DNA of 64,000 nt from a virus (IMGVR_UViG_3300037590_000079:45662-109661); one strand, 5' to 3'. Shown: positions 2,257 to 57,119, counted from the first letter of the stretch. Notes: a model not told the origin generated them from the sequence alone. A program made the numbers and translations.

Positions 2257-2272
2257 AAAGGATAAGTAAGCC

Positions 2273-2602
2273 ATGAGTGATAATACGAACGGCCGGTTCG
2301 TCTCGCCCTGCCCGCCGCCTACGGCGCATGAAAGCGAAGTGCTGACCATCCTCATCGAGGAGGCGGCCGAGGTGCAGCAGCGCGCCACCAAGATGCTGCG
2401 CTTCGGCGTCAAGGAGATGCAGCCCGGCCAGTCCCTGTCGAACCGCGCGCGTCTGTCCGATGAGGTCGGTGATCTGATGGCCATCATCGATATGGCGAAG
2501 GGCATCGGCCTGATCGACACCTTCAGGATCAACAAGGCGCGCGCCGAGAAATTCATCAAGCTGGACAAATACATGCAGACCAATCCGGAGACCGGGAAAT
2601 GA
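2273..2602 (+). CDS. MazG-like (all-alpha) NTP pyrophosphohydrolase
   Basis: LIEEAAEV ... LSDEVGDL (EExxE / ExGD) pattern. Confidence 0.6.
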   Translation: MSDNTNGRFVSPCPPPTAHESEVLTILIEEAAEVQQRATKMLRFGVKEMQPGQSLSNRARLSDEVGDLMAIIDMAKGIGLIDTFRINKARAEKFIKLDKYMQTNPETGK

Positions 2603-3129
2603 GCGAGAATGGCAAATACGAAATCCGCGACTTCATCGACGCCGACCAGCTGCGCCGGGACATGGCCTTTTCGACCAATGACCTGACGAACGCCATGATG
2701 GAGCAGTCCTCGCTGTTCGCGCATTACGGTGTTCTGCACGCCAAGGCGCAGCGCCAGGTGGACGCGGTCAAGATGCTGCTGGAGAGCACCGAGAGCGCCG
2801 TCTACAAGGCGCTGCGCAACAAGATGGAGTCGGATGGCAAGAAGCCGACCGAGGCGCTGCTCGACAAGATGGTGACGAGCCATCCGCGCGTGGTCGGAAT
2901 GAAGCGTGCGCTCGCCGAAGCGCGGCAGGTCGAGGCAATCGGCAAGACCGCCGTAGAGGGTTTCCGGCATCGGCGCGACATGCTCATCCAGCAAGGGCTG
3001 ATCTCGCGTGAGGAGATGAAGGGCGAGGCGCGCATCGCCGAGCGCAACGCGCGCGACGACGCTTATGGCATGCAGAAGGAAAGCGTTCTCCAGCGCCTGC
3101 GCGAGCGGGATTCCGGCGCTGAAAATTGA
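2599..3129 (+). CDS. Helical protein, possibly a UvsY-like recombination mediator
   Basis: Coiled helical 176 aa with KPTEA..DKMV and RRDML motifs; next to the SSB and RecA genes. Confidence 0.5.
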   Translation: MSENGKYEIRDFIDADQLRRDMAFSTNDLTNAMMEQSSLFAHYGVLHAKAQRQVDAVKMLLESTESAVYKALRNKMESDGKKPTEALLDKMVTSHPRVVGMKRALAEARQVEAIGKTAVEGFRHRRDMLIQQGLISREEMKGEARIAERNARDDAYGMQKESVLQRLRERDSGAEN

Positions 3130-3262
3130 TCAGTAACCGCTGATTTTTTTTCGCACGCCCAGATAAGTCGTGCTATATATGATCTAGCTGTTTAGCTTGA
3201 TAGCTAGCAGCAAGAACCCAAGCAGCCGTGATGGCAGCAGGAAGCAGAAAAGGAAGTGAAAA

Positions 3263-43694: not shown

Positions 43695-44315
43695 ATGCAG
43701 AAGACCTACCAGGAAGTTTTCGATTTCGTCGTCGAGAGGCTGCTCCAGCAGGGCAAGCGCGCCATGCGGAAATCCGGCGGCGAAACGCTCTGCGCCCTGC
43801 GCGGCGAAGGAAACACCAAGTGCGCCATCGGCCATCTCATTCCCGACGAGGACTACACCGCGGAGCTGGAAGATTTCAGCACCATTCATAACATCGAAGG
43901 TGAAAACTCGCTTAGCCGCGGCATGAGAAAAGTCCTGGAAAAGAACCTCGGCGAGATCACCGAGGAAGATGCGATCTTCCTGCATGAGTTCCAGTTCGCA
44001 CATGATGTGCAGGAAGAAGGACGTAGTCTCCGCGAGACAATGCGCCTTTTCGCGAAAGCCTACAATCTCGACACCAAGGTGCTCGACACCAATCCCGGAA
44101 AGGAACAGCACATGATCATCATCGGCACAGAACAGACGCCTACCACCGAATACCCCGCACAGATCGTGGAAGCGGCCAAGCTGGTCGTCACGGCGAACAC
44201 CCAGGGCGGCTACGATATTCTCAAGGACGAGCTGGGCGTCATGCAGCACATCAACGACACCTGCGGCGCCATCGACATGCTCGACCTCAAGCGCAATATC
44301 GGCGTCTACCTCTGA
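43695..44315 (+). CDS. Hypothetical protein, paralogue of the 42154 ORF with a C-terminal extension
   Basis: QEVFD.V...LL.Q ... LC..RG...KCAIG.LIPD ... FQFAHD. Confidence 0.7.
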   Translation: MQKTYQEVFDFVVERLLQQGKRAMRKSGGETLCALRGEGNTKCAIGHLIPDEDYTAELEDFSTIHNIEGENSLSRGMRKVLEKNLGEITEEDAIFLHEFQFAHDVQEEGRSLRETMRLFAKAYNLDTKVLDTNPGKEQHMIIIGTEQTPTTEYPAQIVEAAKLVVTANTQGGYDILKDELGVMQHINDTCGAIDMLDLKRNIGVYL

Positions 44316-45600
44316 CACCACAATTCACGCACGAAACGGACAAAGCCGGTGCATCAGCATCGGCTTTTCCACGTCTGCACACCGCACGGGATCAACCGAT
44401 AACGACGCCCCTTGCACGTTTCCACGGGTTTCCGAATGTAAACATTCACACTCATCCATGTTCACATTTTCCGCGAAATCTCCGTAAAATAAGAGGATCG
44501 AATGTTTGCATCTTCCGAAAACCAGGATGGCAAATGTTCCGGATGTAAACATGCAGATCGAGGAAAATCAGGAACTTAGCCTCCCGGCACACCCGAAAAA
44601 CAGCCTTTTTAGGTGTAACACGTAAGAGAACAGGACAGAAGCGGATACCTGAAAACCGTCAGAAGCGCTGAGAAGCGCACACAGTGCGCCTAAGCACTCA
44701 CGACGAGCACCGACAGCTTAAAAGAGTCGGACAGCATCAGGTGAAGCGCACAGCGAGCCCCAGACGCATAGACACCTGCTGGGCAGCACGCACAGACGCG
44801 CCGACAGCGTAAAAGCAGCACGGGAACGCGTAGAGACGACACAGAGCCGGAAGAGGTGCGTGAGAAGATAGGAGATGCAGAGACGCACAGAGAGGTCGAG
44901 CGACAGAGAGCCGAGAGAGAAAGCGTTAAGAAGAGGGTAAGAGGAGAAGAGGGGAGGATCATTATAGGAGGATTGGGTGAGACCACACTTCCCCGCAACA
45001 CACCGCACCGCCCCGGATCTCCCGAACTCCTCAAGACGCCGTCCGAAGCCGCGGCACACCGACACGAAGCGTGCGAAACCAGACGACACCCTCGCTCTGC
45101 TGTGCTACTGTGCTAGTGAGAGACAACGCGTGTCCGGACGCGTTCGTGCTGAAAGGCACACTGTTTTGCGTTGCGCATCACGAGACCGGACCGGATGATG
45201 CTAACTCCAGGAGCGTGAGCACCGTCTCACGCTCCTTTTTCTTTCGCCTGACCTGTGCCGGAGAATGTGTCGCGGAAATGGGAGCTTTGGTGCATCATTA
45301 AGAACTTATCTAAAGAAGGTATCTAAGAGTATTATATATAAAGATACAGCGCGGCTCGGGAAAAGGGAGTTTTCAGACCTCTTCCGGAAAGCCACAAAAC
45401 GCACGAAAACCCTGTAAAATCAGCGTCTAAACACCTCTCCCGGCCAAGTCCTCACTGCCGGACCAGGATTCCGATCGCCGTGCTTCCTCGGGAAAAGGGA
45501 GCTTTCAGACCCCGCGGCGCTGAAAGCCGCGCCACTCATTTCCTTGAAAATCAAGGACTTGAAGATGATCCGCCCCTAATAGGAGCTCAAGCGTCCGGTC
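44316..45600. other. Long non-coding region, candidate replication origin/control region
   Basis: No credible ORF; ATGT-NN-RCAT palindromes at 44436, 44458, 44502, 44543; AT-rich patch 45298-45346; 21-bp direct repeat at 45359 and 45491. Confidence 0.45.
45117..45244 (+). ncRNA. Candidate structured small RNA
   Basis: TGCTACTGT -10-like box at ~45103, three hairpins (one with a GAAA loop), then an 11-bp terminator stem with T-run; no ORF. Confidence 0.35.
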
Positions 45601-46009
45601 CTGGCCGGGTTAGGAATGGCTGGGTATACACGCAAAGGCATTTGCGGGTGTGGCGCGCTCCAGACCCTGAGCCACACCCCTCGGTATACCGAGACCCGCC
45701 GGTATACCGAGGATCTCCCGCGGCACGGATGTGAGCCCGGAGGGACGGCAAGGCACAGAGAGGCATCCGGAGGGATCGCTGGCCCGGCAAAAGCGGTGCG
45801 GATTGCCACGGCTCGCCCTCCCGGTGCAAATCCTGACGCCCTGCCCTCTTTCCGCTCGATTTCGACGCACCCGACGGATCGGCTCGTCCCGCGCGCTCCC
45901 TGTCCGATGCCGATCGATGCCTGCCGCTATCCTTCGCAGCGTGTCGTATTGTGCAAGTGTGATCGCGACAAGCGCGACACGCGAAAGCAAAGCAGAAAGG
46001 AAATGTCAC

Positions 46010-46648
46010 ATGGCACAGAACGACAAAGTCACCGAAAAGACCTTCGCGGAGATCATCGCAGATGTGAGCGCCGGCCGCACCAAGAAGCGGATCAGCGATT
46101 TCGAGACCGCCTTCGACGCGCGCATGGCGCACGAGACGCAGAAGGCCGCCGGCAACACCTCGATCCAGAAGGTGCTGAAGGCCGAGAAGGCGAAGCTGAC
46201 CACGCCCGCCCTTGCCGCGCTGAGCCTCGCCGCCGAGATGAGCCCGGACTTCGTCAACCGCGTCAGCCGAGGCGACGCCCGTTTCAACGTCTACGCCATC
46301 AAGAAGATCACGGACCTGATGAACGGTCTCAACGGCCAGGCCATGCGGAACGCGATCAACATCGCCATCATCAAGTCGATGCTGGCCTGCGAGAAGGCGG
46401 GCGTGCCCTTCACCGGCCAGATCGCGCAGGCCGCGGTCTCCGACAAGCTGCCGCTCAAGAAGGAACTCGACGCGATCATGACGCGGCACAATGTCGGTGC
46501 GAGCACGGCACCGACGCAGGCGTCCTCGACGATGAACGCCCTGATGATGACCGGCGTGGCGCGCAACACGGGCACGACGCGCAACCCGGTCTACGAACTC
46601 AAGGCGACGCCGCAGACCGAGGTGCTGCGCACGATGTTCGCCGCGTAA
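46010..46648 (+). CDS. Hypothetical protein (family shared with the 52481 and 28243 ORFs)
   Basis: AAAGGA RBS; normal codon usage; hairpin at 46661-46698 downstream. Confidence 0.8.
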   Translation: MAQNDKVTEKTFAEIIADVSAGRTKKRISDFETAFDARMAHETQKAAGNTSIQKVLKAEKAKLTTPALAALSLAAEMSPDFVNRVSRGDARFNVYAIKKITDLMNGLNGQAMRNAINIAIIKSMLACEKAGVPFTGQIAQAAVSDKLPLKKELDAIMTRHNVGASTAPTQASSTMNALMMTGVARNTGTTRNPVYELKATPQTEVLRTMFAA

Positions 46649-47153
46649 CACCGCAGAGACGCTGAGCGAGCCCGTGAGTGCGTTCGGGCTCACTCAGCAC
46701 CCTGACACCGAAAAAGCGCTCAGGCGCACTCAGTGAAGCGCACAGCGCCTCTCAGGCACAACAAGGGAGACACCCGTCCATGACCTGGCCCTAGCGAGAC
46801 ACCGATGATCAGCGCCACAGACACACGCGCACCAGGCACGACCTGAATTGAAGCCCACCGGGCGACAGGGGAGCACGAGACGTCTGACACCGTCCGCTCC
46901 CCTTTTTCGCGTCTGTGCGTGTGCCGCGGGCTGCCGCGGGACTGGTTGATCCGGGGAATGGATAGGGTGACAGGGACACGCCGGGAGGCGCGTATGGCAA
47001 CAATCTTTCGTTCGTCTCCGAGGAGCTGGCAACTTTTGCAAAGCGGCGTGCCCAAGGTGCGGCGGCTCCCTGCACGCGCCTTCAGAGCCCTGCCGCATCC
47101 CGGCTGCGCGCTTGCTACTGTGAAGATACGCAACGCAAGACGGAGAAAGCGAC

Positions 47154-47441
47154 ATGATGGATTATCACGAGGCGGCAGCGCAGTGGGAGCAGCTTTGCGA
47201 AGGCAGCGAGCTGCTCCGGATCTATATCGAGAACGTCGAGGTGCGCGAGGATCGCATCGTCTACAATTTCGACGGGCACATGAAGTGCGTGCTGTTCTGG
47301 AACACGGAGATCGGCAAGTGGGTCGAGCGCGGCGACGTGCGCGGCGACGAGGATCTGGTGACGATCGAGCGCGGCATTATCGCGAACACGCTGATCGAGG
47401 TGCGCGACAGGCTTGAGGAGGAGCTGCGCGACCCGCTCTGA
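47154..47441 (+). CDS. Hypothetical protein (single-gene cassette)
   Basis: ACGCAACGCAAGACGGAG leader. Confidence 0.7.
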   Translation: MMDYHEAAAQWEQLCEGSELLRIYIENVEVREDRIVYNFDGHMKCVLFWNTEIGKWVERGDVRGDEDLVTIERGIIANTLIEVRDRLEEELRDPL

Positions 47442-47682
47442 GAGCGCTCTGAAGGCGGGGCCGGGAATGGCATCGTCTTCAGGGACCGGCCGATCCGGGA
47501 ATGGCTGGCTCCGGGCGTGTGGATGGCAGGATGGACGGGTATACCGATCCGCGGTCAATTGCGGGGCGCCGGATCCCTGCCCGGCCCTGCACCGACCGTC
47601 GCGTGCCTGGCGTCACCGCGCGCAAACCGCATCTCGCTCTGCTATGTGTGAGACACGCAACACGAAGCAGAAAGAGAGAACC

Positions 47683-48075
47683 ATGCAGATCGCAGAACCG
47701 CAGAACCTCGAACTCAAGACCTATCTCAAGAACCTGTTCGATCTGACCGAAGATGATGCGCGCGAGATCGCGCTCGACCTCGAACAGGTCATGCGCGGTG
47801 ATACCGAGAGCACCCGGTATTTCGAGACGAAGAAACCGCAGCATACGGTTCGTATCAGTGACGAACTCGCACAGCGCATCGCGAACCATGTCGCAGACCT
47901 GCTCGACCGCGAGCTGCCCACTTCCATCGAGATCCCGGCCACTGACCGCGGTGTCATTCTCGACCGCGTGTCGCAGAGTTGCCGCGCGCACCTCGAAACC
48001 CACTGGGCGAAAGACGCGAGTGCGACCTTCTGCGACGCACCTGACGACCACGACATACCGTCGCGCACCGCGTGA
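47683..48075 (+). CDS. Hypothetical protein (single-gene cassette)
   Basis: CAGAAAGAGAGAACC-ATG leader. Confidence 0.7.
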   Translation: MQIAEPQNLELKTYLKNLFDLTEDDAREIALDLEQVMRGDTESTRYFETKKPQHTVRISDELAQRIANHVADLLDRELPTSIEIPATDRGVILDRVSQSCRAHLETHWAKDASATFCDAPDDHDIPSRTA

Positions 48076-48150
48076 AAACCTGATCGAGACGTGTCAGTGT
48101 AGCAATGTGTCTACACTGACACGCAACGCAGAACCTGAAAGGAACTCATC

Positions 48151-48474
48151 ATGACCGCAGAACGTCAACTCGAAACGATCCTCGATGGCCTCAAGCCGCT
48201 CGACGCCGAAAAGGCGCTCGACGGCGATCTCAGCGAGCGCTTCTCGGCCGTCGTCGGCCAGACCTTCTTGATCGACGTGATCCTCGTCGATACCGAGCAC
48301 TACCCGGACGTGTCCGTGGTTCTCGATATCTATCGTCGTGAAGGCACGCACAACATTCACGACGACTTCCGCGGTCTGAGCGATCACGTCGGCCTCTACG
48401 CGGTCCGGTCGCTGCACGACGCCGTCATGCGCATCGCGTCCGCGGTCGTCGTTCACGAAGATACCGTGATCTGA
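48151..48474 (+). CDS. Hypothetical protein
   Basis: ACGCAACGCAGA leader; AAGGA RBS. Confidence 0.7.
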   Translation: MTAERQLETILDGLKPLDAEKALDGDLSERFSAVVGQTFLIDVILVDTEHYPDVSVVLDIYRREGTHNIHDDFRGLSDHVGLYAVRSLHDAVMRIASAVVVHEDTVI

Positions 48475-48543
48475 GCGCCGCGAACGACCTGTGTGCGCCG
48501 CGGCGCACACAGGCATCAGCAAGGCAGACAGAAAGAGATAGCT

Positions 48544-48729
48544 ATGACCGACATCAACCGCATGAAAACCGGCCAGCGCGTCAAGATCGATCACCCCTTC
48601 TACGGCCAGCGCGTCGTCACGATCGAGGATTTCGACGGCCCCAAGGGCAGCACCGTGAACGATACCGGCCTTTGCACGATCGACGGCGCGCGCGTATGGT
48701 TCGATCAGGACATGATCGTCAGCGCCTGA
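48544..48729 (+). CDS. Hypothetical protein (SH3-like beta fold possible)
   Basis: CAGACAGAAAGAGA leader; GQRVKI.HPFYG..VV. Confidence 0.6.
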   Translation: MTDINRMKTGQRVKIDHPFYGQRVVTIEDFDGPKGSTVNDTGLCTIDGARVWFDQDMIVSA

Positions 48730-48735
48730 TGCGCA

Positions 48736-48764
48736 CCAAGGGCGAGCAAGGCGCTCGCCCTTGG
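48736..48764. repeat. 12-bp-stem hairpin, copy 1
   Basis: CCAAGGGCGAGC-AAGGC-GCTCGCCCTTGG. Confidence 0.8.
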
Positions 48765-48862
48765 GACCGACGGGCCTGCACGCGCCGTCACATACCTGCC
48801 GAAAACCTCGAAACGCGTCGCTATTCTGACTGCACTCGCAACGCAGACAGAAAGAGAGAACC

Positions 48863-49312
48863 ATGCTTTACGTGACCGAGAAAGACCTGCTTCACATCAA
48901 GAACGAAGACCTGCACGGTCCTGTCGTCGAGTGCCTCGGCCTCTTCGACGCTGTTCAGCGTCTGTGCAAGTCGCGCCTCACGAACGACGACCGCATCATG
49001 CTCTGGAGCCTTCACGACGCCTATGTCGATCACGAGCAGCGCGACGCCGTCTCGCGCCATGAGGCGCTGCTGATCATCGAGAGCATGATGCGCCTCATGC
49101 CTGTGACGGTCTTGCGCGAGCACAACAACGCGCTCGAATATCTGCACCTCGGCCTCGACGAGGCGCAGTCGCACGACGCGATCAACGGTTTTGTGTGGTG
49201 CAGCACGTATCTGCCTTTCGACAAGAGCGCGCCGTGCGCGACCTGCATCGCAGACGAGAGCGCCTTTCCGGAACTGATCGCGATGATCGAGGGCGCGCTC
49301 AACATCGAGTGA
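48863..49312 (+). CDS. Hypothetical protein
   Basis: CGCAACGCAGACAGAAAGAGAGAACC-ATG leader. Confidence 0.7.
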   Translation: MLYVTEKDLLHIKNEDLHGPVVECLGLFDAVQRLCKSRLTNDDRIMLWSLHDAYVDHEQRDAVSRHEALLIIESMMRLMPVTVLREHNNALEYLHLGLDEAQSHDAINGFVWCSTYLPFDKSAPCATCIADESAFPELIAMIEGALNIE

Positions 49313-49318
49313 CGAGAA

Positions 49319-49347
49319 CCGAGGGCGAGCAAGGCGCTCGCCCTCGG
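49319..49347. repeat. 12-bp-stem hairpin, copy 2
   Basis: CCGAGGGCGAGC-AAGGC-GCTCGCCCTCGG; compensatory change relative to copy 1. Confidence 0.8.
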
Positions 49348-49451
49348 GACGCGCCGGTGCGGGGCCACGGAAACGAATGGCCGCGCAGGGAGAGGTTCTG
49401 CAAGGGCTCTGACGGGCCGCGCGTCCCGCGGGCAGCCCTCCCGGCACGCAA

Positions 49452-49482
49452 GAAAAAGGGCGTGCGTCACGCACGCCCTTCT
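49452..49482 (-). terminator. Terminator between convergent genes
   Basis: AAGGGCGTGCG / CGCACGCCCTT stem with A-run on the left. Confidence 0.7.
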
Positions 49483-49490
49483 CGTCTCGC

Positions 49491-49844
49491 TTACGCGACC
49501 TCGGGCACGAGCGCGCGCTGACGTGCCTTCTCGCGCCGCCGGCGCCACACCTTCGCCCAGTAGCGCCCTTTGCGCGCCTTCATCTTCTCGCGCATCGCGA
49601 TGCGCAGATCGTGCCGCTTCGCGCTGATATAGGCGCAGGCCGCTTCCACCTGGTCGTCGTGCAGCCCCGCTTCCTCGAAGAGCCGCTCGATGCGCGCTTC
49701 GAGCGACCGCGCGCTCGCAGCGCACGCATCGCGCGCCTTGTCGCTCACGCTCTGCGAGCCCCTTTCGATGCCGCGCAGATCGCGTTCCTCACGCGCGATC
49801 TTGTCGAGAATGACACGCTGCCGGATTTCGAAGTCGGTTTTCAT
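49491..49844 (-). CDS. Hypothetical basic helical protein
   Basis: AAAGGA RBS on the minus strand. Confidence 0.65.
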   Translation of the reverse strand: MKTDFEIRQRVILDKIAREERDLRGIERGSQSVSDKARDACAASARSLEARIERLFEEAGLHDDQVEAACAYISAKRHDLRIAMREKMKARKGRYWAKVWRRRREKARQRALVPEVA

Positions 49845-49904
49845 AGCAAGTTCCTTTCTCTGCTTTGCTTGCATCTTTAGCTTTGCAGCTATCTGAGCGG
49901 ATAG

Positions 49905-50066
49905 CTATCGGTATGCAGCGGCTTGCTCAGGCGTCATCAGGCCGAGAAGGACAGAGGTGTCGGCGGGAGCGACGGTCACGGCGATCATCAGCGCCATCAG
50001 GAGCACGCCGGCGACGAGCACGGCCAGGCCGCTGAGCAGTTCGAGCAGTTCCTCCAGCACGCTCAC
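49905..50066 (-). CDS. Small membrane protein
   Basis: GTG start with GGAGG RBS; one long hydrophobic helix. Confidence 0.55.
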   Translation of the reverse strand: MSVLEELLELLSGLAVLVAGVLLMALMIAVTVAPADTSVLLGLMTPEQAAAYR

Positions 50067-50251
50067 GCCTCCTTTGCCTGAAGGGCGCTCAGCGAGCCGC
50101 GCAGACGCCGCAGCAGCGCGATTTCCTGCCGCACCAGCGGGCGCATGATCGCGTGCGCGTTGCGACCGCGAAGCCACACTCTGACGCGCGATTCCTGCGC
50201 GCTGATCGCGCCGATGAGGCGCTGCTTCTCGATTTCGTGACGGTTTTGCAT
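50063..50251 (-). CDS. Hypothetical protein
   Basis: ACGCAAGCAGAGAGCGAGA leader. Confidence 0.6.
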   Translation of the reverse strand: MQNRHEIEKQRLIGAISAQESRVRVWLRGRNAHAIMRPLVRQEIALLRRLRGSLSALQAKEA

Positions 50252-50460
50252 GGTAGTCTCGCTCTCTGCTTGCGTTTTCAGTAAGTTATGAATGACACGC
50301 GTAGAGACGGATTGCGGCAGGCATCGACAGGTGCGCGCAGGGCGTGCCAGGGGCGGCGCATCCCTGCCGCCCTGCGCGCGCCGTCTGAAGCCTGCCGACA
50401 TCCTGATTTTCGCGTGCGAGTCTGTGATTACTGACAACGCAGACAGAAAGAGAGAAGATC

Positions 50461-50724
50461 ATGACCTTCGCTAAAACGACGAAAAAGAACATCGCGCCGC
50501 ATCTCGACGAGCAAGATGAAGAGATCCTCGACGCGATGCGCAAGATCGCGGCCGCATTCTACAAGAAGGCAATCGTCAAGATGAACGACGCCGCGGTCGA
50601 GAACGTCTCGCCCGATGAGGTCTACGATCTCGTCGCGCAGTCGCGCCGCTACAGCGTGAAATCGAGCAATTACGAGCGCAAGCTGCGCCGTATTTATGAC
50701 GAGAAGCGCAAAGACGCCTTCTGA
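50461..50724 (+). CDS. Hypothetical protein (no Gly or Trp)
   Basis: ACGCAGACAGAAAGAGAGA leader. Confidence 0.7.
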   Translation: MTFAKTTKKNIAPHLDEQDEEILDAMRKIAAAFYKKAIVKMNDAAVENVSPDEVYDLVAQSRRYSVKSSNYERKLRRIYDEKRKDAF

Positions 50725-50796
50725 TACCTGCCGACATCCTTCGTCTTGCGTGTCAGTTTGTGATTACTGACACGCAAGACAGAAAGAGAGAGTATC

Positions 50797-51045
50797 ATGC
50801 CCTACACGTTTCAGAACCCGACGCTGCACATGCAAGCTGATGCGGTCATCGTCGCGATGTTCGAAGGCGACAACGAATACGCGATCATCGACGCGGGCTC
50901 GAACGGCACTGCGAATTTCGTGCTCGTCGTTGCCTCGCTCGCAGAAGGCGACGACGTGGTCGTGCTCGAAGAGCACTGCGCGCGCCTGCAAGAAGCCATC
51001 ACGCTCCTCAACGAGTTCATCGACTCTGAATACGCGGACGCTTGA
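50797..51045 (+). CDS. Hypothetical acidic protein
   Basis: ACGCAAGACAGAAAGAGAGA leader. Confidence 0.7.
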   Translation: MPYTFQNPTLHMQADAVIVAMFEGDNEYAIIDAGSNGTANFVLVVASLAEGDDVVVLEEHCARLQEAITLLNEFIDSEYADA

Positions 51046-51321
51046 GGTCTCGCTGCGCATCGAAAGGTGCGCAGCATTCCTTTCGACACCCGGCCGGGTC
51101 AGGAAAGGATAGGGTAACAGGGACCGCCCGATGCGGGCTGCCCGCCACGCCGACGCGGATACGGGCACACAGAGGCCGGCACAGGCACACCGCGGCGCAT
51201 ACAGGGCTCGACGGCTCCCGCCCCTGCCCCGCCATCCTTCAAGCGCCAGAACATGCCGCGATCTATCCGCTCTTGCGCGTGCGATGATGAGTTACTGCAA
51301 CGCAAGACAAGGAGAATACCA

Positions 51322-51615
51322 ATGACCGTCATTCTGAATATCTCGCGCGCACACTGGCGTGGCCCGGAACTCATCGACGTGCCCGTCTACCTCGAAGACG
51401 TCACCGAGGACGCTCTTGATCGCGAGTGCGTGCCCCTCGACGAGATCGAGGATCAGATCGCGTCTGCCATCTGGGAACAGGCGGATCACGAGCGACACGA
51501 CTGGATCCTCGGCGAAGACGAGATTCCCGTGCGCATGCCGGACGAGGCCGAGCGGCTCGAACTGGCGCGCGAAGGATATCTCGTCAGCGCCTATCTCGAC
51601 GAGCGCGTGCAGTAG
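51322..51615 (+). CDS. Hypothetical acidic protein
   Basis: ACGCAAGACAAGGAG leader; D/E-rich. Confidence 0.7.
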   Translation: MTVILNISRAHWRGPELIDVPVYLEDVTEDALDRECVPLDEIEDQIASAIWEQADHERHDWILGEDEIPVRMPDEAERLELAREGYLVSAYLDERVQ

Positions 51616-51853
51616 CACGCCTTGCAGGGCACGCTCTCACGCGCCCTGCGGCACTTGCGGGGACGGGAATGGATGGGTCAACAGGGACGGACCGATGCGG
51701 GGCGCGGCGCACGCCTGGGGAGGGGAATGGATTCCTCAAGGGAGCCGCCGATCTGCGGCGGGGCAGGCACGCGGAGAGCGCGCCCTACCCCTTCCTCGGC
51801 GGCTCCCTGTGGCTGGATAGCCACATGGCTGGATAGCCACACAGCCCGAAGGC

Positions 51854-52180
51854 TCAGTAGATATCCACCTGAATCCGGGTCGCCCGATCCAGCTCGCCCA
51901 GGAGCCGGAGCCTGGCAACGGGGTCGGGGATGGACGCCGCCCTGCCCGCCAGCCTGGCGTTGAGTTCCGCGGCACGGCGCTCCAGCCGCTCCACGTCCCT
52001 GGCGATCTTCTCCGCCAGTTCCTTGCTGGTCTGGTCGTAGATATCCGGCATATCCACGCCCTTCTTCCGCTGGTCGAGGATGAACCTGCGGATCGGCGGG
52101 ATGGACTTCTTCCGGGCGCGGTGCTCGGCGACCCTCTGGCTGACGGGCTTCCGGGCGGGTTTGGTCTTGCCTTCGGGCAT
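51854..52180 (-). CDS. Hypothetical basic protein
   Basis: AGGAG RBS; Arg/Lys-rich N-terminus and coiled C-terminus. Confidence 0.6.
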   Translation of the reverse strand: MPEGKTKPARKPVSQRVAEHRARKKSIPPIRRFILDQRKKGVDMPDIYDQTSKELAEKIARDVERLERRAAELNARLAGRAASIPDPVARLRLLGELDRATRIQVDIY

Positions 52181-52444
52181 GGAATGGTCTCCTATGGTCT
52201 GGGGAAAGGAATGGAGAGGTGCCGGACGGGAGCCGCCTGCCGACGGGCAGGCACATGGCTCGGCGCAGGCGCAGCGGGTAGGGACGCCCCGTGTGGCGGA
52301 AATGCCACAGTGTGATTTTCTCGTCACTATGGCATTTCTGCAACTGTGCTTTTCATGTCGCAGTGTGACATTCATGCCGTCGATCCCCCTACTGTGACAT
52401 TTTTGCAACACGCTCTCGCGTGTGCATGTTACCGAAAGTCGAAA

Positions 52445-52472
52445 CGTGCAGCGCTCTTGCGAGCGCTGCACG
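52445..52472 (-). terminator. Terminator hairpin of the GG/CC-free gene
   Basis: Perfect 12-bp stem CGTGCAGCGCTC / GAGCGCTGCACG 8 nt after the stop; TTTCGACTTT follows on the minus strand. Confidence 0.7.
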
Positions 52473-52480
52473 CTGTCACG

Positions 52481-53020
52481 TCAGCACGCGACGAAATCAG
52501 CGAATTTCTCAGCGCACGCGTCGAGCAATGCGCTGTCACGCGCTTCATACGTATGTTTCGAGATTTCGCGCATCATGTTCGCATTTTTCATCATGCTGAT
52601 AGCGAGTTGCACTTGACGTGCTGTCGAGTGTTTCGACTGACGCTCATGCACGATATGCGCGCGTTCGTCGCTCACTTTGCACGAATTCAGCATCGCGCAT
52701 TCGATATCGTGACGCGTCACGAAAGCGTCATGTGCGCGCGCGTTGAGAAGCGTCTTGATCGCGCACAGCGAATTCTGCTTCACGTCGCTTGCGCTGATAT
52801 GATCGCGCGTGACGTTGTGCGCGATGTTCACGATATCAAACGCGCAGTAGAGATCACGCGCGTTGAAATAGCGCGCGTCGATATTGCTCGCGATAAGCAT
52901 ATCGTAAACGCGCTTGTCTGCGCATTTCAGCGCAAGCGACTGCGCTTTCTTGACGTTGTTCGCGCACAGTTCGCGCTTTTCGATCAGCGACTTGAATGCT
53001 TTGCTATACTTGTTCGACAT
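52481..53020 (-). CDS. 179-aa protein without Gly, Pro or Trp, encoded in GG/CC-free DNA
   Basis: Open frame with promoter, AGAGAGAGA RBS and terminator; resembles the 46010 protein by eye. Confidence 0.75.
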   Translation of the reverse strand: MSNKYSKAFKSLIEKRELCANNVKKAQSLALKCADKRVYDMLIASNIDARYFNARDLYCAFDIVNIAHNVTRDHISASDVKQNSLCAIKTLLNARAHDAFVTRHDIECAMLNSCKVSDERAHIVHERQSKHSTARQVQLAISMMKNANMMREISKHTYEARDSALLDACAEKFADFVAC

Positions 53021-53069
53021 TGTGTCTCTCTCTCGTTTTGCGTTGCTAGCGTTGTTCGCTAGTAAGTTA

Positions 53070-53098
53070 CATCTACGCGAAACAATCGCACAATGCAA
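53070..53098 (-). promoter_or_regulatory. Sigma70-like promoter of the GG/CC-free gene
   Basis: TTGCAT-N17-TAGATG on the minus strand; a TAGCTATC box abuts the -35. Confidence 0.55.
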
Positions 53099-53470
53099 TA
53101 GCTATCTAGCTAAAAAATGTCTCAATCGTGATTTTTTTTCGATATCGTCACAGAGCGTCACAGAGCGTCATACAGTGCGCTTAGCATCTTGCGCTAGTCT
53201 GTGTCGCGAAACGACGCAATCGCACTGTGTGAAGCGCACAGCGCTTCTGTGCGCGTGCTGCGTCTCGTGCGTCTCGAAGTCTTAGAAAATCGCGAGATGC
53301 TTGAGGGGGATACCCTCTGTGTCCACCAGCTCCCGGCGTTGAAAGCTCCCATACTCTCTGTGCCACCGACATCCTGGCACAAAAGCTCCCCTGCCCCGCG
53401 CACCACAACGGATATTGCTGGATACTCCCATAGCTATCCGGCTCTGTATGGATCTACCTCGATAGCTATC

Positions 53471-53545
53471 TGGCTCCCCGGACAGGGTTCGAACCTGTAA
53501 CCTGCCGATTAACAGTCGGCTGCTCTACCGTTGAGCTACCGGGGA
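53471..53545 (-). tRNA. tRNA-Asn(GTT)
   Basis: TCCCCGG acceptor stem, CCGAC-TGTTAAT anticodon arm, GGTTCGAAC T-loop, encoded CCA. Confidence 0.95.
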
Positions 53546-53548
53546 AGA

Positions 53549-53624
<76 letters not shown>

Positions 53625-53626
53625 AA

Positions 53627-53703
53627 TGGTCCGTGTGGAGGGATTTGAACCCCCGTCTCTCCGCGTCCAAGGCGGCCACTCTACCAGGCTGAGCTACACA
53701 CGG
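53627..53703 (-). tRNA. tRNA-Pro(TGG)
   Basis: CCGTGTG acceptor stem (C1:G72, A73), loop CTTGGAC, GGTTCAAAT, ACCA end. Confidence 0.9.
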
Positions 53704-53967
53704 GATCGTGGTGATCCAGAGGCGCTGCCGGTGATGAGAGTGTGAAGCTATCTGCCAGCGCCCTGGTTCGGGCGCGATGGCGCCCGTTATGCGATGATGG
53801 GGTTGGGGTTCGGGTTCAGCTTCATGCGGCTGGGTATAGCTGGATCGTGCTTCCGTGTAAATAGCTATCTGGCTTTATACCCTTCCAGCTGGATATGGCT
53901 CAGTCAGCGTTGACTTATTCTCCTTGAAATCATAAGGTCCACGCAGGATACAGTCAGGGAGTGCAGC

Positions 53968-54240
53968 ATGCCCGAACAGATCGAAGGTTACACGCGGCCG
54001 GACCAGGAACAGATCGACCTGGTCAACTTCAACAAGCGCTTCGAGGAGCTGCTGTTGCGCCTGCTGGACGCGCACCAGGCGCAGGGTGCCTGTGATCCGC
54101 GCTTCCTGGCCGTGGCTCGGACGCACTTTCAGGAAGGATTTATGGCGCTCAATCGCAGCGTGATGCAGCCCGAGCGCATCCCCGGCGATCTGACCGCGGA
54201 TGACTTTCTTTCCATGCTTGCCGAACTGGGTGCGAAATGA
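53968..54240 (+). CDS. acb2: Acb2/Tad1-family cyclic-nucleotide sponge (anti-CBASS-like)
   Basis: IEGY...QEQIDLVN..K ... RFLAVARTHFQEGFMALNRSVMQP matches the Acb2 pattern (IKGYR.LSQEEID..N..K ... RWLAIGKT..QTG.MA..RAIAQP). Confidence 0.7.
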   Translation: MPEQIEGYTRPDQEQIDLVNFNKRFEELLLRLLDAHQAQGACDPRFLAVARTHFQEGFMALNRSVMQPERIPGDLTADDFLSMLAELGAK

Positions 54241-54788
54241 GCACCACGGAAATCAGCTTCGCCGCCGTTCTGACCTATCTGCTGGAGAACTCCGACAGCC
54301 GGTTCTTTCTCGCCGACATGATCGCGAACCACGAGGGTGTCGCGCAGGCAGAGGAGGCCGCGGGCGCGGCAGAGACGCCCTGGGACGATATCTTGCTGCG
54401 GTCCTGCACCGATCTGCTGGAATTCGAGCTCCTGACGGGCGGGAACGATCACATTGAACGGATCGCGATGCTGGCGCACGAAACCAACCGGATCTACTGC
54501 GCCAGTCTGGGCGATACCAGCCAGCCGAAATGGGAGGACGCGCCCGAGTGGCAGCGCGATAGTGCGTGCGATGGCGTGATCTTTCTGCTGCGGCACCGCG
54601 ATGCAACGCCGGAGTTCAGCCATGCGAACTGGCTGGCGCACAAGCGGAAAGAGGGCTGGGTCTACGGGCCGGTGAAGGATCCGGCCGCCAAGACGCACCC
54701 CTGCATGGTGCCCTACGCCGATCTGCCGCCCGAGCAGCGCCGCAAGGACGATTTCTTTCACGCCATCGTGCGGAGCATGCAGCCATGA
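54237..54788 (+). CDS. RyR-repeat domain protein
   Basis: SHANWLAHKRKEGWVYGPVKD..AKTHPCMVPYADLP.EQR.KD. Confidence 0.8.
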   Translation: MSTTEISFAAVLTYLLENSDSRFFLADMIANHEGVAQAEEAAGAAETPWDDILLRSCTDLLEFELLTGGNDHIERIAMLAHETNRIYCASLGDTSQPKWEDAPEWQRDSACDGVIFLLRHRDATPEFSHANWLAHKRKEGWVYGPVKDPAAKTHPCMVPYADLPPEQRRKDDFFHAIVRSMQP

Positions 54789-55225
54789 CCGTGATCGTCT
54801 ACAGGGATGGCGTGATGGCGGCCGATACGCGCGCCTGGAGCGGCGACTCGGTGCCCGTGGGCTGGAAGAAGAAGATCCGCCGGCTCGAAGATGGCCGCCT
54901 GGTGGGGTGTTCGTGCCCGGAAGTGGGTGTGCCGAATGCGTTCCTGGACTGGATCGCGGCGGGTGCGCCCGAAGATGCCAAGCCGAAGATCGACGATAAC
55001 GAGGGCTTGTCGGGGCTGGTCGTCGATGCGCAGGGGCAGGGGTGGCTCTACACGGCGAACATGCAGTGCAGCGGCCCGATCCACGCGCCCTACTTCGCGA
55101 TCGGCTCCGGCGAGAAATACGCACTGGGTGCGCTGGCGATGGGTGCCACGGCGGAAGAGGCCGTGCAGGCGGCGTGTGATCTCGACGTGTTTTCCGATCT
55201 GCCGCTGCACACGGAGCGGCACTGA
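54785..55225 (+). CDS. HslV/proteasome-beta-like Ntn hydrolase
   Basis: M-T start, MAADTR, KKI, AIGSG..YALGALAMGATAEEAV..A..LD. Confidence 0.75.
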   Translation: MTVIVYRDGVMAADTRAWSGDSVPVGWKKKIRRLEDGRLVGCSCPEVGVPNAFLDWIAAGAPEDAKPKIDDNEGLSGLVVDAQGQGWLYTANMQCSGPIHAPYFAIGSGEKYALGALAMGATAEEAVQAACDLDVFSDLPLHTERH

Positions 55226-55284
55226 GCTGTAAACGCGAATGGCTGGATAGCTAACCAGCCATTTCGCTACTTGAGGAAAGAGGC

Positions 55285-55608
55285 ATGGGTATCGATTTCG
55301 AACACAAGCGCGGCGACACGTTCGATTTCTCGGGCTTCATCGAGGTCGAGACGCCCGATGGCGTGCTGAACGATCTGACCGGCTGGACCGCGAAATCGCA
55401 GGTGCGGACGATCCATGACGTTCTGGTCGCGAACCTCGAAGTGACCTGGCTCGACATCGAGACCGGCAAGATCCGCGTTCGGGCGCAGGATACGACGGCC
55501 TGGCCGCTCTGCGAGGCGGAAATCGACATCCAGCTTACCTCGCCCGGCGGGGATCTCGTCTCGACCAAGACCAACCGCTTCGAAATCGTGCGGGATATTT
55601 CGCGATGA
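55285..55608 (+). CDS. Fibre/baseplate adaptor (BppU-N-like)
   Basis: KRGDTF ... DLTGWTAKSQVR ... DT.AWP ... DIQ. Confidence 0.65.
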   Translation: MGIDFEHKRGDTFDFSGFIEVETPDGVLNDLTGWTAKSQVRTIHDVLVANLEVTWLDIETGKIRVRAQDTTAWPLCEAEIDIQLTSPGGDLVSTKTNRFEIVRDISR

Positions 55609-55778
55609 GACTGGTGCCGCAATACGTTGTTCGGGGAAAGCTCGAAAGCTCGAATGCCAAGGCAGAGCTGGAGATGAAGCCTGCCACGAACAGGATCAGG
55701 ATCGAACTTGCGCCCTTTCTGAAGGGCGCGGACGGCACGCTTGAGGCGGGCGCGACGATAGACGGCGGCAATTTCTAA
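55605..55778 (+). CDS. Small 57-aa protein ending IDGGNF (below the ORF-track cut-off)
   Basis: ATGA overlap; fills the gap to the fibre gene. Confidence 0.55.
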   Translation: MRLVPQYVVRGKLESSNAKAELEMKPATNRIRIELAPFLKGADGTLEAGATIDGGNF

Positions 55779-55790
55779 CGGGAGACGAAG

Positions 55791-57119
55791 ATGGCCAACG
55801 AGATCAGGTTGAAACGCCGCGTCAGCGGTAATGCAGGGGCACCGGCGACGCTCAAGTCGGGCGAGCTTGCCTGGAACATGAGCGAAGGTGTCGTCTATGG
55901 CGGGGCGGGTGATGACGGCGGCGGTGGCGCGACCAGCGTCGTGGCATTGGCGGGGCAGGGGGCTTTCGTCGGCCTCGGCGGCACCCAGACGATCACAGGG
56001 ACCAAGACCTTCAGCCTGGTGCCGAAGGCGAGCCAGGATGCCAGCAGTGGCACGGATCTCGTGCGCAAGAGCCAGCTCGACACGCTGCTCGGCGGCAAGG
56101 CCGATACCGGCCACGGCCACGCCATCGGCGACATCACTAGCCTTCAGGCGACGCTCGATATCAAGGCGCCGCTGGCGAGCCCGGCACTGACCGGCACGCC
56201 GACCGCACCGACGCAGACCAGCGGCGACAACAGCACCAAGATCGCGACGACCGCCTATGTGGATTCGGCGGTGACGGCCGGGACGGTTTCGGCGATCGGA
56301 GACGTGGGCGACGTCACGATCACCACGCCGGCGGAAAATCACCTGCTGGTCTACGACAATGGTCTTGGCGAGTGGGTGAACCGGACCGCAGGCGCGGCAG
56401 GTATCGCATCTGCGACGCATGAGCACGCCGCGAGCGATATCACCAGTGGCCAGATTCCCGTGACGCGCGGCGGCACCGGAGCGGACACCGCGGCGGGTGC
56501 GCGCACCGCGCTCGGCCTGGCGATCGGCAGCGACGTGCAGGCGCATTCCGCTGTTCTGGACAGCACCACGGCCGCGTTCACCACGGCGCAGGCCACGAAG
56601 CTCGGGTATATCTCGGTTTCGCAGGCGATCGATCTCGACCAGATCGACAGCCGGGTGAACGCGCTCGACAGCGCCGTTGTGCTCAAGGGCACCTGGGATG
56701 CGAATGCCGGCACGTTCCCCGGTGCAGGGGCAGCCCAGGCGGGCGAGACCTGGATCGTGACCACGGCCGGAACGGTCGATGGTGTCGATTTCGCCGTGAA
56801 CGACCGAATTATGGCGATCACCGACAACGCCTCGGGCTCGACCTTCGCCTCGAACTGGCTGAAGCTCGACTATACCGACGCGGTGCTCTCGGTGGCCGGC
56901 AAGACCGGTGCCGTCACCCTGGCGGCTGCCGACATCCTGAGCGGAGAGTTCGCGGATGCCCGGATCAGCGCATCCAGCGTGACGCAGCACCAGGGTGCGC
57001 TGACGCTCACCCTGAGCCAGGTGAGCGACGCGGGCTCGCTCGCCGGCCAGGACGCAAGCGCGGTCAATATCACCGGCGGGACGATTGACGGTGTGACGCT
57101 CGACGGTGGCACGTTCTGA
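55791..57119 (+). CDS. Tail/auxiliary fibre protein
   Basis: HGHAIGDITSL, KAPLASPALTGTPTAPT..DNSTKIATTAYV, RGGTGA, VLSVAGKTGAVTL fibre repeats. Confidence 0.88.
   Translation: MANEIRLKRRVSGNAGAPATLKSGELAWNMSEGVVYGGAGDDGGGGATSVVALAGQGAFVGLGGTQTITGTKTFSLVPKASQDASSGTDLVRKSQLDTLLGGKADTGHGHAIGDITSLQATLDIKAPLASPALTGTPTAPTQTSGDNSTKIATTAYVDSAVTAGTVSAIGDVGDVTITTPAENHLLVYDNGLGEWVNRTAGAAGIASATHEHAASDITSGQIPVTRGGTGADTAAGARTALGLAIGSDVQAHSAVLDSTTAAFTTAQATKLGYISVSQAIDLDQIDSRVNALDSAVVLKGTWDANAGTFPGAGAAQAGETWIVTTAGTVDGVDFAVNDRIMAITDNASGSTFASNWLKLDYTDAVLSVAGKTGAVTLAAADILSGEFADARISASSVTQHQGALTLTLSQVSDAGSLAGQDASAVNITGGTIDGVTLDGGTF

Follow-up and report, generated by a model that had tools for sequence, protein, structure and literature searches.

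The DNA considered here (the window, 64,000 nucleotides) is the last 64 kb (45662-109661) of G000, a virus contig of 109,661 bp that comes from a pond metagenome (IMGVR_UViG_3300037590_000079); positions are counted from the first letter of the window. Two of its genes are our subject: O, an ordinary gene, and S, which lies within an island containing neither GG nor CC. A first-pass annotation had claimed that the GG/CC-free gene is a recoded paralogue of the gene at 46010, and this is borne out by a profile match, by the predicted fold and by the recoding of the coding sequence. We find in addition that the ban on GG and CC is on the nucleic acid, not on the protein. G000 shares synteny with Rhizobium phage RHph_N1_10 and related phages, siphophages of 115-122 kb carrying plasmid-type maintenance genes; parA, parB and repC have been described in these relatives, as have terminal repeats of 3.6-3.9 kb in B1VFA and V1VFA-S, those of B1VFA being 3.6 kb long (PMC12509600). 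A megablast search of window positions 44000-56000 against phages gave tRNA-sized matches only. The O/S pair is conserved over a group of alphaproteobacterial phage-plasmids of 110-120 kb that are related to the Rhizobium phages B1VFA and RHph_N1_10.

Results and discussion

Layout of the locus

The island occupies 52432..53305 (873 bp), in which neither strand contains a single GG or CC. The second-longest GG/CC-free run is 68 bp, in the window and in the entire 109,661-bp genome alike, and a scan of both found no comparable run for any other dinucleotide class. The island corresponds to a whole gene unit on the minus strand, comprising leader, coding sequence and hairpin. Its G+C content (0.46-0.52) is below that of the surroundings (0.57-0.61), and CG and GC are strongly over-represented within islands of this type (rho 1.8). 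Since the island is free of GG and CC, every recognition word containing either is absent from it; words without them (GCGC, CGCG, TCGA, GATC and the EcoRI and EcoRV sites GAATTC and GATATC) are present.

The start of S was taken as the ATG at 53020, which aligns with the homologues; the open reading frame (ORF) listing extends S to a TTG at 53098. All S genes start after a GG-free GAGAGA/GAAAGA leader in place of a Shine-Dalgarno sequence. The non-coding DNA upstream of S also holds a direct triplet of CTGTGACG and a GATAGCTATC-like palindrome at 53097-53106; repeats close to the promoters are candidate sites for DNA binding. A scan of the island for consensus sigma-70 promoters gave no site, so that the S promoter is putative. 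The hairpin 3′ of the stop codon is likely, from its sequence, to be the S terminator; it was not called by a terminator scan of the island because its T tail is weak.

The O protein contains 10 Gly and 7 Pro, and the GG/CC density of its coding sequence is normal (86). O and S belong to a set of eight genes with a common leader of the form ..ACGCAACGCA(A/G)(A/G)ACAGAAAGAGAGA..CATG, which from the alignment of their upstream regions looks like one expression-cassette family.

Table 1 Features at and around the O/S locus (window coordinates unless another sequence is named)
Feature	Position	Strand	Description
O leader/promoter region	45925..46009	+	CGCAACGCA..CAGAAAG..ATG; cassette-type, by alignment of eight upstream regions
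Ordinary paralogue O	46010..46648	+	212 aa; predicted helical N-terminal domain and C-terminal winged helix
Eight common leaders	45925-46012, 47069-47156, 47598-47685, 48066-48153, 48778-48865, 50376-50463, 50712-50799, 53018-53105(-)		By upstream alignment
Small single-gene cassettes between O and S	47154..51045	.	O/S leader type; partial, context-dependent GG/CC depletion
GG/CC-free island	52433..53304	.	No GG or CC on either strand
Hairpin 3′ of S stop codon	52446..52471	-	11-bp stem, GCAA loop; read from sequence
Recoded paralogue S	52481..53020	-	179 aa; no Gly, Pro or Trp; predicted domain plan as O
Upstream non-coding part of island	53021..53304	-	Purine-rich GG-free leader GAGAGAGAGACACA ahead of ATG
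tRNA-Asn(GTT), tRNA-Ile(GAT), tRNA-Pro(TGG)	53471-53703	-	Directly upstream of island
Three-gene operon beside island	53968-55225		Acb2/Tad1-hairpin, RyR-domain and HslV-like proteins
GATAGCTATC copies	49900, 53097, 53429, 53461, 53860, 55246, 60710, 60726		Palindrome
Candidate DNA-marking cassette	G000 194-3146 (locus L025, outside window)		Just before terminase; ParB_N-domain protein, 134-aa protein, soluble ABC-type ATPase, 294-aa GNAT-like protein

O and S are homologues

Compared as profiles (55 S sequences against 43 O sequences), the two families match in hhalign with Prob 98.9 and E 3.3e-17 over 171 columns, pairing S 3-174 with O 29-211. Controls with the S alignment reversed, or shuffled by column in eight versions, gave E 0.31-0.78. 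The four colinear blocks that the annotation had aligned by eye are reproduced, block 3 being shifted by one residue. In BLASTP the window S against the window O alone is not significant (E 0.13), so that profiles were needed to prove the by-eye alignment, which was correct. Among slower-evolving relatives the likeness shows in single pairs: the S protein of locus L015 matches the window O with 35% identity over 174 aa (E 8e-23), and within a single locus S matches its own O in L009 (E 5e-18) and in L020 (E 1e-9); tblastn with S queries also matches O genes. When 19 O proteins are aligned with 19 S proteins, identity over the two families together reaches 80% or more in 19 columns, among them R38, N93, Y95, K99 and, in the recognition helix, T166-A167-x-T169-Q170-x-S172-S173...A177-L178. 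By these comparisons, O and S are descendants of one ancestral gene for a DNA-binding-type protein.

The annotation had further stated that the Gly and Pro positions of O are replaced in S, and the larger set agrees: ten columns dominated by Gly or Pro in the 19 O proteins are filled differently in the 19 S proteins, Gly giving way to Asn, Asp, Arg, His or Ala and Pro to Ala, Ser or Asp. Because GGN, CCN and TGG codons are impossible in the island, S is written in a 17-letter alphabet. The term "recoded" is also apt at the level of DNA: from its own protein and the codon usage of the genome, 43 GG/CC would be expected in the S coding sequence (the minimum in 500 draws being 23), and there are none.

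AlphaFold2 models were built on the two alignments and have a mean predicted local distance difference test score (pLDDT) of 95.9 for S and 94.8 for O, with parallel secondary structure. The top structural neighbour of both models is the winged helix of AF1382 (2qvo_A), with Z 9.0 for S and 9.6 for O and a root-mean-square deviation of 2.5-2.7 over 81-82 residues. Winged-helix neighbours score Z 7-9 on S residues 75-179 and Z 8-9.6 on O residues 100-212, and those beyond the top one are largely common to the two, on S 75-177 and O 109-212; these are the segments paired by hhalign, the likeness being one via common neighbours. Such Z values are ordinary for winged helices and therefore name the fold, not the function. 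In the S model, helices 82-96, 103-110 and 134-146 and strands 150-154 and 157-160 form a predicted helix-turn-helix and beta wing. The models thus predict that O and S are winged-helix DNA-binding-type proteins, and the predicted fold is unchanged in S despite the loss of Gly, Pro and Trp. The annotation had named the lack of a significant profile match and different predicted folds as evidence that would speak against it; the profiles match and the winged-helix neighbours are common to both.

Family assignment went no further. Against the PDB, Foldseek produced weak winged-helix rows but nothing at E ≤ 0.001, and a PDB sequence search with the O and S profiles found no relative at E ≤ 0.1 and nothing below E 0.2. 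Searches of Pfam, PHROGs, NCBIfam and PADLOC with O and S returned no family with a function, the cut-offs of Pfam and NCBIfam being unreached, and the ESM Atlas queried with O returned unnamed clusters only. In the models the C-terminal ~100 residues of O and S resemble ArsR/SmtB, MarR-like proteins and AF1382 (PDB 2qvo) in having a helix-turn-helix and beta wing. By sequence they match no curated model of the ArsR/SmtB, MarR or DtxR families, and their predicted four-helix N-terminal domain and the 20-residue insert before the recognition helix are without a named relative. As a test of an assignment to the RepA/RepE-type replication initiators, which have two tandem winged helices and a gene beside iterons and an AT-rich origin, we note that O is preceded by a 1.1-1.7 kb non-coding region in all phages compared; the N-terminal domain of O and S is, though, predicted to be all-helical with no wing, and no Rep structure was prominent in the fold searches.

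The region of ~1.7 kb (44319-46009) immediately upstream of O is without a convincing ORF and contains, at 45682 and 45700, palindromes of CGGTATACCG in tandem. The O homologues of B1VFA and RHph_N1_10 are likewise preceded by gaps of 1.1-1.5 kb. An origin, a control region and a DNA end are all conceivable roles for the gap.

The annotation had also suggested that one function is kept in two versions. The recognition helix reads NTASTQSSSSINAL in many slowly evolving S lineages, nearly the O helix STAPTQASSTMQAL. On these sequences, a common function is plausible for most lineages and less sure for the diverged S of the window.

Distribution and history of the pair

The O family has at least 96 homologues with a median Gly+Pro+Trp content of 8.7%, none being free of the three residues; several are on 104-120 kb contigs in Phaeobacter, Ancylobacter, Faunimonas, Mesorhizobium and Agrobacterium assemblies. 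The S family, collected by HMMER search with S and two relatives, comprises 61 cluster representatives at 50% identity. Gly, Pro and Trp are all absent from 46 of the 61 and one or two such residues occur in eight, while a few members of the family bear 6-8 Gly. The loci of relatives were fetched through O, giving 18 loci, two of which duplicate others; a three-sequence S alignment searched against viral and genome contigs gave no loci.

A GG/CC-free run of 458-1531 bp lies 1-4 kb downstream of O in 15 of the 18 loci. The island is kept in all four Rhizobium phage loci, that of RHph_X66 being interrupted by a single CC. Locus L021 (NZ_FOFG01000014.1) is a 109,453-bp contig that is a member of the phage-plasmid group and lies whole within the assembly of a cultured bacterium, Faunimonas pinastri A52C2, which would make it convenient for experiments; it has both O and an S unit poor in GG/CC, the longest GG/CC-free run being 501 bp.

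In a maximum-likelihood tree, 19 O and 19 S proteins are divided by a single branch with full support (100 in the Shimodaira-Hasegawa-like approximate likelihood ratio test), and this argues for one old split. The two subtrees are broadly congruent. S and O distances are correlated (r 0.67), with S distances ~1.7 times longer, that is, S evolves faster. The simplest reading of the tree is that one duplication, or one acquisition of a homologue, preceded the diversification of the phage group and that the two copies then descended together.

A ban at the level of the nucleic acid

The non-coding flanks of S, the synonymous sites, the codon junctions and unrelated cargo genes are all purged of GG and CC, and the ban is therefore one on nucleic acid. 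Upstream of its start codon S has a GG/CC-free flank of 284-292 nt and, past the stop, one of 47 nt, and over 13 strict islands the median flank is 145-254 nt per side. The longer islands of relatives (up to 1531 bp) hold extra ORFs of 59-146 aa that are mutually unrelated and all without Gly, Pro and Trp. Since unrelated ORFs obey it, the rule belongs to the place and not to the S protein; the idea that these small ORFs form one family was ruled out, their sequences being unrelated. We also rejected an explanation from the supply of tRNAs for Gly, Pro and Trp codons, as it leaves the out-of-frame and non-coding avoidance unexplained.

The rule has been lost in places. The S genes of L005 and L013 have regained 32 and 59 GG/CC, respectively, and their proteins still have only 3 Gly+Pro each; these Gly/Pro-poor proteins are a fossil of the earlier rule. 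The tree makes L005 the sister of the window S and groups L013 with L011 and L017. Both are nested among strict relatives, so the rule was lost at least twice.

It might be asked whether any selection for escape is needed, since a mutational process directed at GG/CC at this locus, or selection for a protein without Gly, Pro and Trp that the DNA merely follows, could leave a similar trace. The lower G+C of the island and the retention of Gly/Pro-poor proteins in relaxed lineages would suit such a view, yet the purging extends to non-coding flanks and to synonymous and junction sites, and CG and GC are enriched, not lost. A protein-level cause also sits badly with the members of the S family that have 6-8 Gly, and with the relaxed lineages, where GG/CC was regained first at silent sites while function-bearing residues stayed; the protein thus tolerates ordinary coding. 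A variant contig from another pond sample is informative on mutation. It differs at 13 of 151 positions (52865-53015) by a mixture of transitions and transversions, and its count of GG/CC is still zero. The chance of zero GG/CC after 13 random substitutions is 0.02, although as a single low-depth contig this gives weak support. Taken together, we find an origin of the island free of such selection barely credible.

On the message strand GG and CC are excluded equally, which fits a step acting on duplex DNA. A ban at the level of RNA, in which the message has to be GG/CC-free to evade a dinucleotide-specific RNA cleaver or modifier, would require two RNA specificities for the same pattern. It has attractions: the island is approximately a transcription unit, beginning in some relatives just 40-70 nt upstream of the S start codon; the Shine-Dalgarno sequence is replaced in all S genes; and a dinucleotide-specific modifier of mRNA has a precedent in CmdT, which ADP-ribosylates GA in single-stranded RNA/mRNA (PMC11618068). 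The ban in the window, however, reaches so far upstream of the start codon as to pass any likely transcript start, and we judge an RNA-level cause very improbable. The CmdTAC system shows that an infection-relevant factor, here a defence enzyme, can have two-base specificity, which would select on dinucleotide content. The difference is that CmdT acts on single-stranded RNA at GA, whereas the island pattern is strand-symmetric, concerns GG/CC and runs into DNA that is probably untranscribed.

Genes beside the island

The three-gene operon sits just past the tRNA cluster adjoining the island. Its first protein (90 aa) has an Acb2/Tad1 hairpin domain (Pfam E 3.5e-13), the second a RyR domain (E 3.4e-10; PHROG 5154, E 6.5e-45) and the third a weak proteasome/HslV-like match. 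From these domain matches the operon probably consists of anti-defence genes. At the place of the tRNA cluster, relatives carry tRNA-Asn, tRNA-Met, and tRNA-Trp(CCA) or a pseudo-tRNA(CCA). We note that two of the three residues that S lacks are Pro and Trp and that Asn is the commonest stand-in for Gly; this may be coincidence.

The palindrome GATAGCTATC, allowing one mismatch at most, occurs in 11 copies where 0.94 are expected. Copies are found around the tRNAs, in the promoter region of S and ahead of both the Acb2-like operon and parA, and the palindrome may, judged by these positions, be the operator of one regulator linking S to the partition genes.

Context rules and a proposed reader

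Partly relaxed sequences reveal which GG/CC-containing words are avoided most. In the S unit of L016 (12520-13800, 1281 bp), 18 of 20 GG/CC are in the context ACCR/YGGT, ACCR being the first context to be tolerated. ACCG is as frequent there as the flanks predict (13 observed, 12 expected) and ACCA occurs 5 times against 8 expected; the remaining fourteen NCCN contexts together occur twice against ~189 expected. In L005 (12040-12700) A or T before CC is tolerated (ACCT 8, TCCA 7) and avoidance persists for GCCN (5 against 32 expected) and CCCN (2 against 17). In L013 (2040-2700) the ban is fully relaxed. The S proteins of all three lineages are still nearly free of Gly and Pro. The small cassettes between O and S in the window are partly depleted: their GG/CC density is 0.59 of that of the bulk at equal G+C (0.611 vs 0.608), and eight of them have fewer GG/CC than the 95% range expected from their own protein. 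Relative to the bulk, ACC stands at 0.91, GCC at 0.67, and CCC and TCC each at 0.37, an order that agrees with the relaxed lineages. A rule that is graded, dependent on context and variable between lineages fits a sequence-specific reader, whether an enzyme or a binding protein. G-quadruplex formation and oxidation-prone GG were considered and dropped, as neither would predict tolerance of ACCR alone.

We propose that the ban reflects selection for escape from a sequence-specific factor that would read a short GG/CC-containing word on duplex DNA. The words would rank in danger with TCC and CCC above GCC, and ACC least. The S unit would then stay intact or expressible when GG/CC-bearing genes, O included, do not. 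S itself would duplicate, in hardened form, an O-like DNA-binding function, with the island as a safe zone for other small genes too.

Such a reader could be encoded by the phage itself. If the phage marked its own virion DNA at GG/CC words, the S unit would be the sole gene on the entering DNA without a mark and could be read at once. A candidate for the marking activity is the cassette that lies between ParB-like genes and the terminase in G000: one of its products is an ABC ATPase (Pfam ABC_tran, E 3e-13), and another, of 294 aa, has GNAT acetyltransferases as its nearest Atlas clusters (score 0.97). The cassette is conserved in all five related records searched. A phage-encoded reader would account for the conservation of the trait across host genera, and changes in the specificity of the enzyme would give lineage-specific tolerated contexts. 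Pfam, however, makes no GNAT call on the 294-aa protein. The gene is moreover intact in the relaxed L005 and L016, with no stops and 65-79% identity, so that its presence does not track the trait. The heavy avoidance of restriction words in G000 also suggests that the DNA is not broadly protected by modification. We regard self-marking as unlikely.

That avoidance is itself striking, and the complete absence of many palindromes indicates that restriction is a strong force on this phage. In G000, GTAC occurs 0 times against 136 expected, CTCGAG 0 against 94, CTGCAG 0 against 43 and GTCGAC once against 77; there are no copies of CCCGGG, CCATGG, AGGCCT, AAGCTT, CACGTG, GTGCAC or GGGCCC, and CTAG is at 0.27 of expectation. 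The island could on this account serve to evade host nucleases or CRISPR systems that need GG/CC (GGCC, CCGG or CCWGG sites; CC or NGG protospacer-adjacent motifs), in the manner of the site-free first-entering DNA of T5 and T7 that carries the first protective genes. The adjoining operon of probable anti-defence genes, with its Acb2/Tad1 sponge domain, and the terminal repeats and plasmid-maintenance genes of the relatives (PMC12509600) are in keeping with this. The pre-early DNA of T5 and BF23 is the first to enter, and restriction sites within it matter (PMC10644984); RHph_N1_10 is annotated with a T5-type "A1 protein", of which only 73 of 620 residues match in G000. Against a host-side agent, over the genome GGCC stands at 0.97 of expectation and CCGG at 1.09 (GCGC, CGCG and GATC being normal too), and cutting at these sites would still kill the phage. 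The ban is on the bare dinucleotide and not on palindromes, several of which are found in the island. Finally, the trait is kept across host genera and the avoidance of GTAC is not: most related loci are without GTAC, whereas L006, L009, L014, L015 and L018 have it. Since GGCC and CCGG are normal and GTAC avoidance varies among phages that keep the island, the island is separate from classic avoidance, and its agent probably goes with the phage group as a whole and not with one host. A host-side explanation is accordingly improbable in our estimation.

Restriction-site avoidance and CRISPR PAM depletion are alike in that short nuclease words are selectively lost, as G000 also does genome-wide. 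Classic avoidance is, however, genome-wide, statistical and host-specific, whereas the island ban is absolute, local, context-graded, kept across host genera and independent of palindrome avoidance. The pre-early DNA of T5/BF23 and the leading end of T7 are the closest known arrangement, being a short self-contained early part of a large siphophage genome, free of target words so that its genes can work while the remainder is not yet safe; for the island, this likeness is one of sequence. T5 and T7 avoid particular 6-bp sites, while the island avoids a bare dinucleotide at the cost of three amino acids, and S is a winged-helix paralogue of a neighbouring gene and no known anti-restriction protein. 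How the DNA of T5 itself escapes the destruction of host DNA is still an open question (PMC10644984). A literature search for GG-free or CC-free genes found no paper describing such islands; a paper on modified cytosine was set aside because it concerns a different Rhizobium phage.

We return to S as a hardened O-like winged-helix copy in a DNA safe zone that escapes a reader of GG/CC words, which we consider probable, though well short of secure. Several points weigh against it. Two relaxed lineages and one cassette array are the whole basis of the context rules. No candidate for the GG/CC reader was found: the gene content within 10 kb on either side, compared across 17 loci, includes no gene that tracks the strictness of the island, and the sole candidate tested, the GNAT-like gene, is intact whether the lineage is strict or relaxed. 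It is not obvious how sparing a single gene would save a genome in which other genes bear the word. Ancient acquisition of a homologue is indistinguishable from duplication. Lastly, the recognition helix of S in the window lineage has diverged (STARQVQLAISMMK), and "same function" may not hold here.

A more specific form of the hardened-copy reading may be put forward tentatively, and we are somewhat more doubtful than confident of it. An undescribed factor reading a two-to-three-base word (roughly BCC/GGV) would disable the genes that bear it, and this phage group, perhaps with many other phages, would answer with a word-free safe zone made up of changing cargo and a hardened duplicate of one of the phages' own DNA-binding regulators, written in a 17-amino-acid alphabet. 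The specificity of the factor would drift by lineage, and the tolerated contexts would track it.

Conclusions

Folded proteins made from fewer than 20 amino acids are known from experimental work on reduced alphabets. The S family differs from these in being natural, old and diverse (61 clusters) and in having a full-alphabet sister family. O and S thus offer an ancient, diverse natural pair, a family using all 20 amino acids and a sister using 17, without Gly, Pro and Trp, with one predicted fold. The column-by-column stand-ins for structural Gly and Pro are directly useful to protein design and to ideas about reduced alphabets.

For the phages, an absolute, conserved and context-graded dinucleotide ban confined to one unit implies an undescribed sequence-reading activity in infection or in plasmid carriage. 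Comparison of lineages that are strict, half-relaxed or fully relaxed offers a handle on this activity, and the group includes cultured phages (B1VFA, V1VFA-S, RHph_N1_10 and RHph_X66) whose hosts are soil bacteria that are easy to handle.

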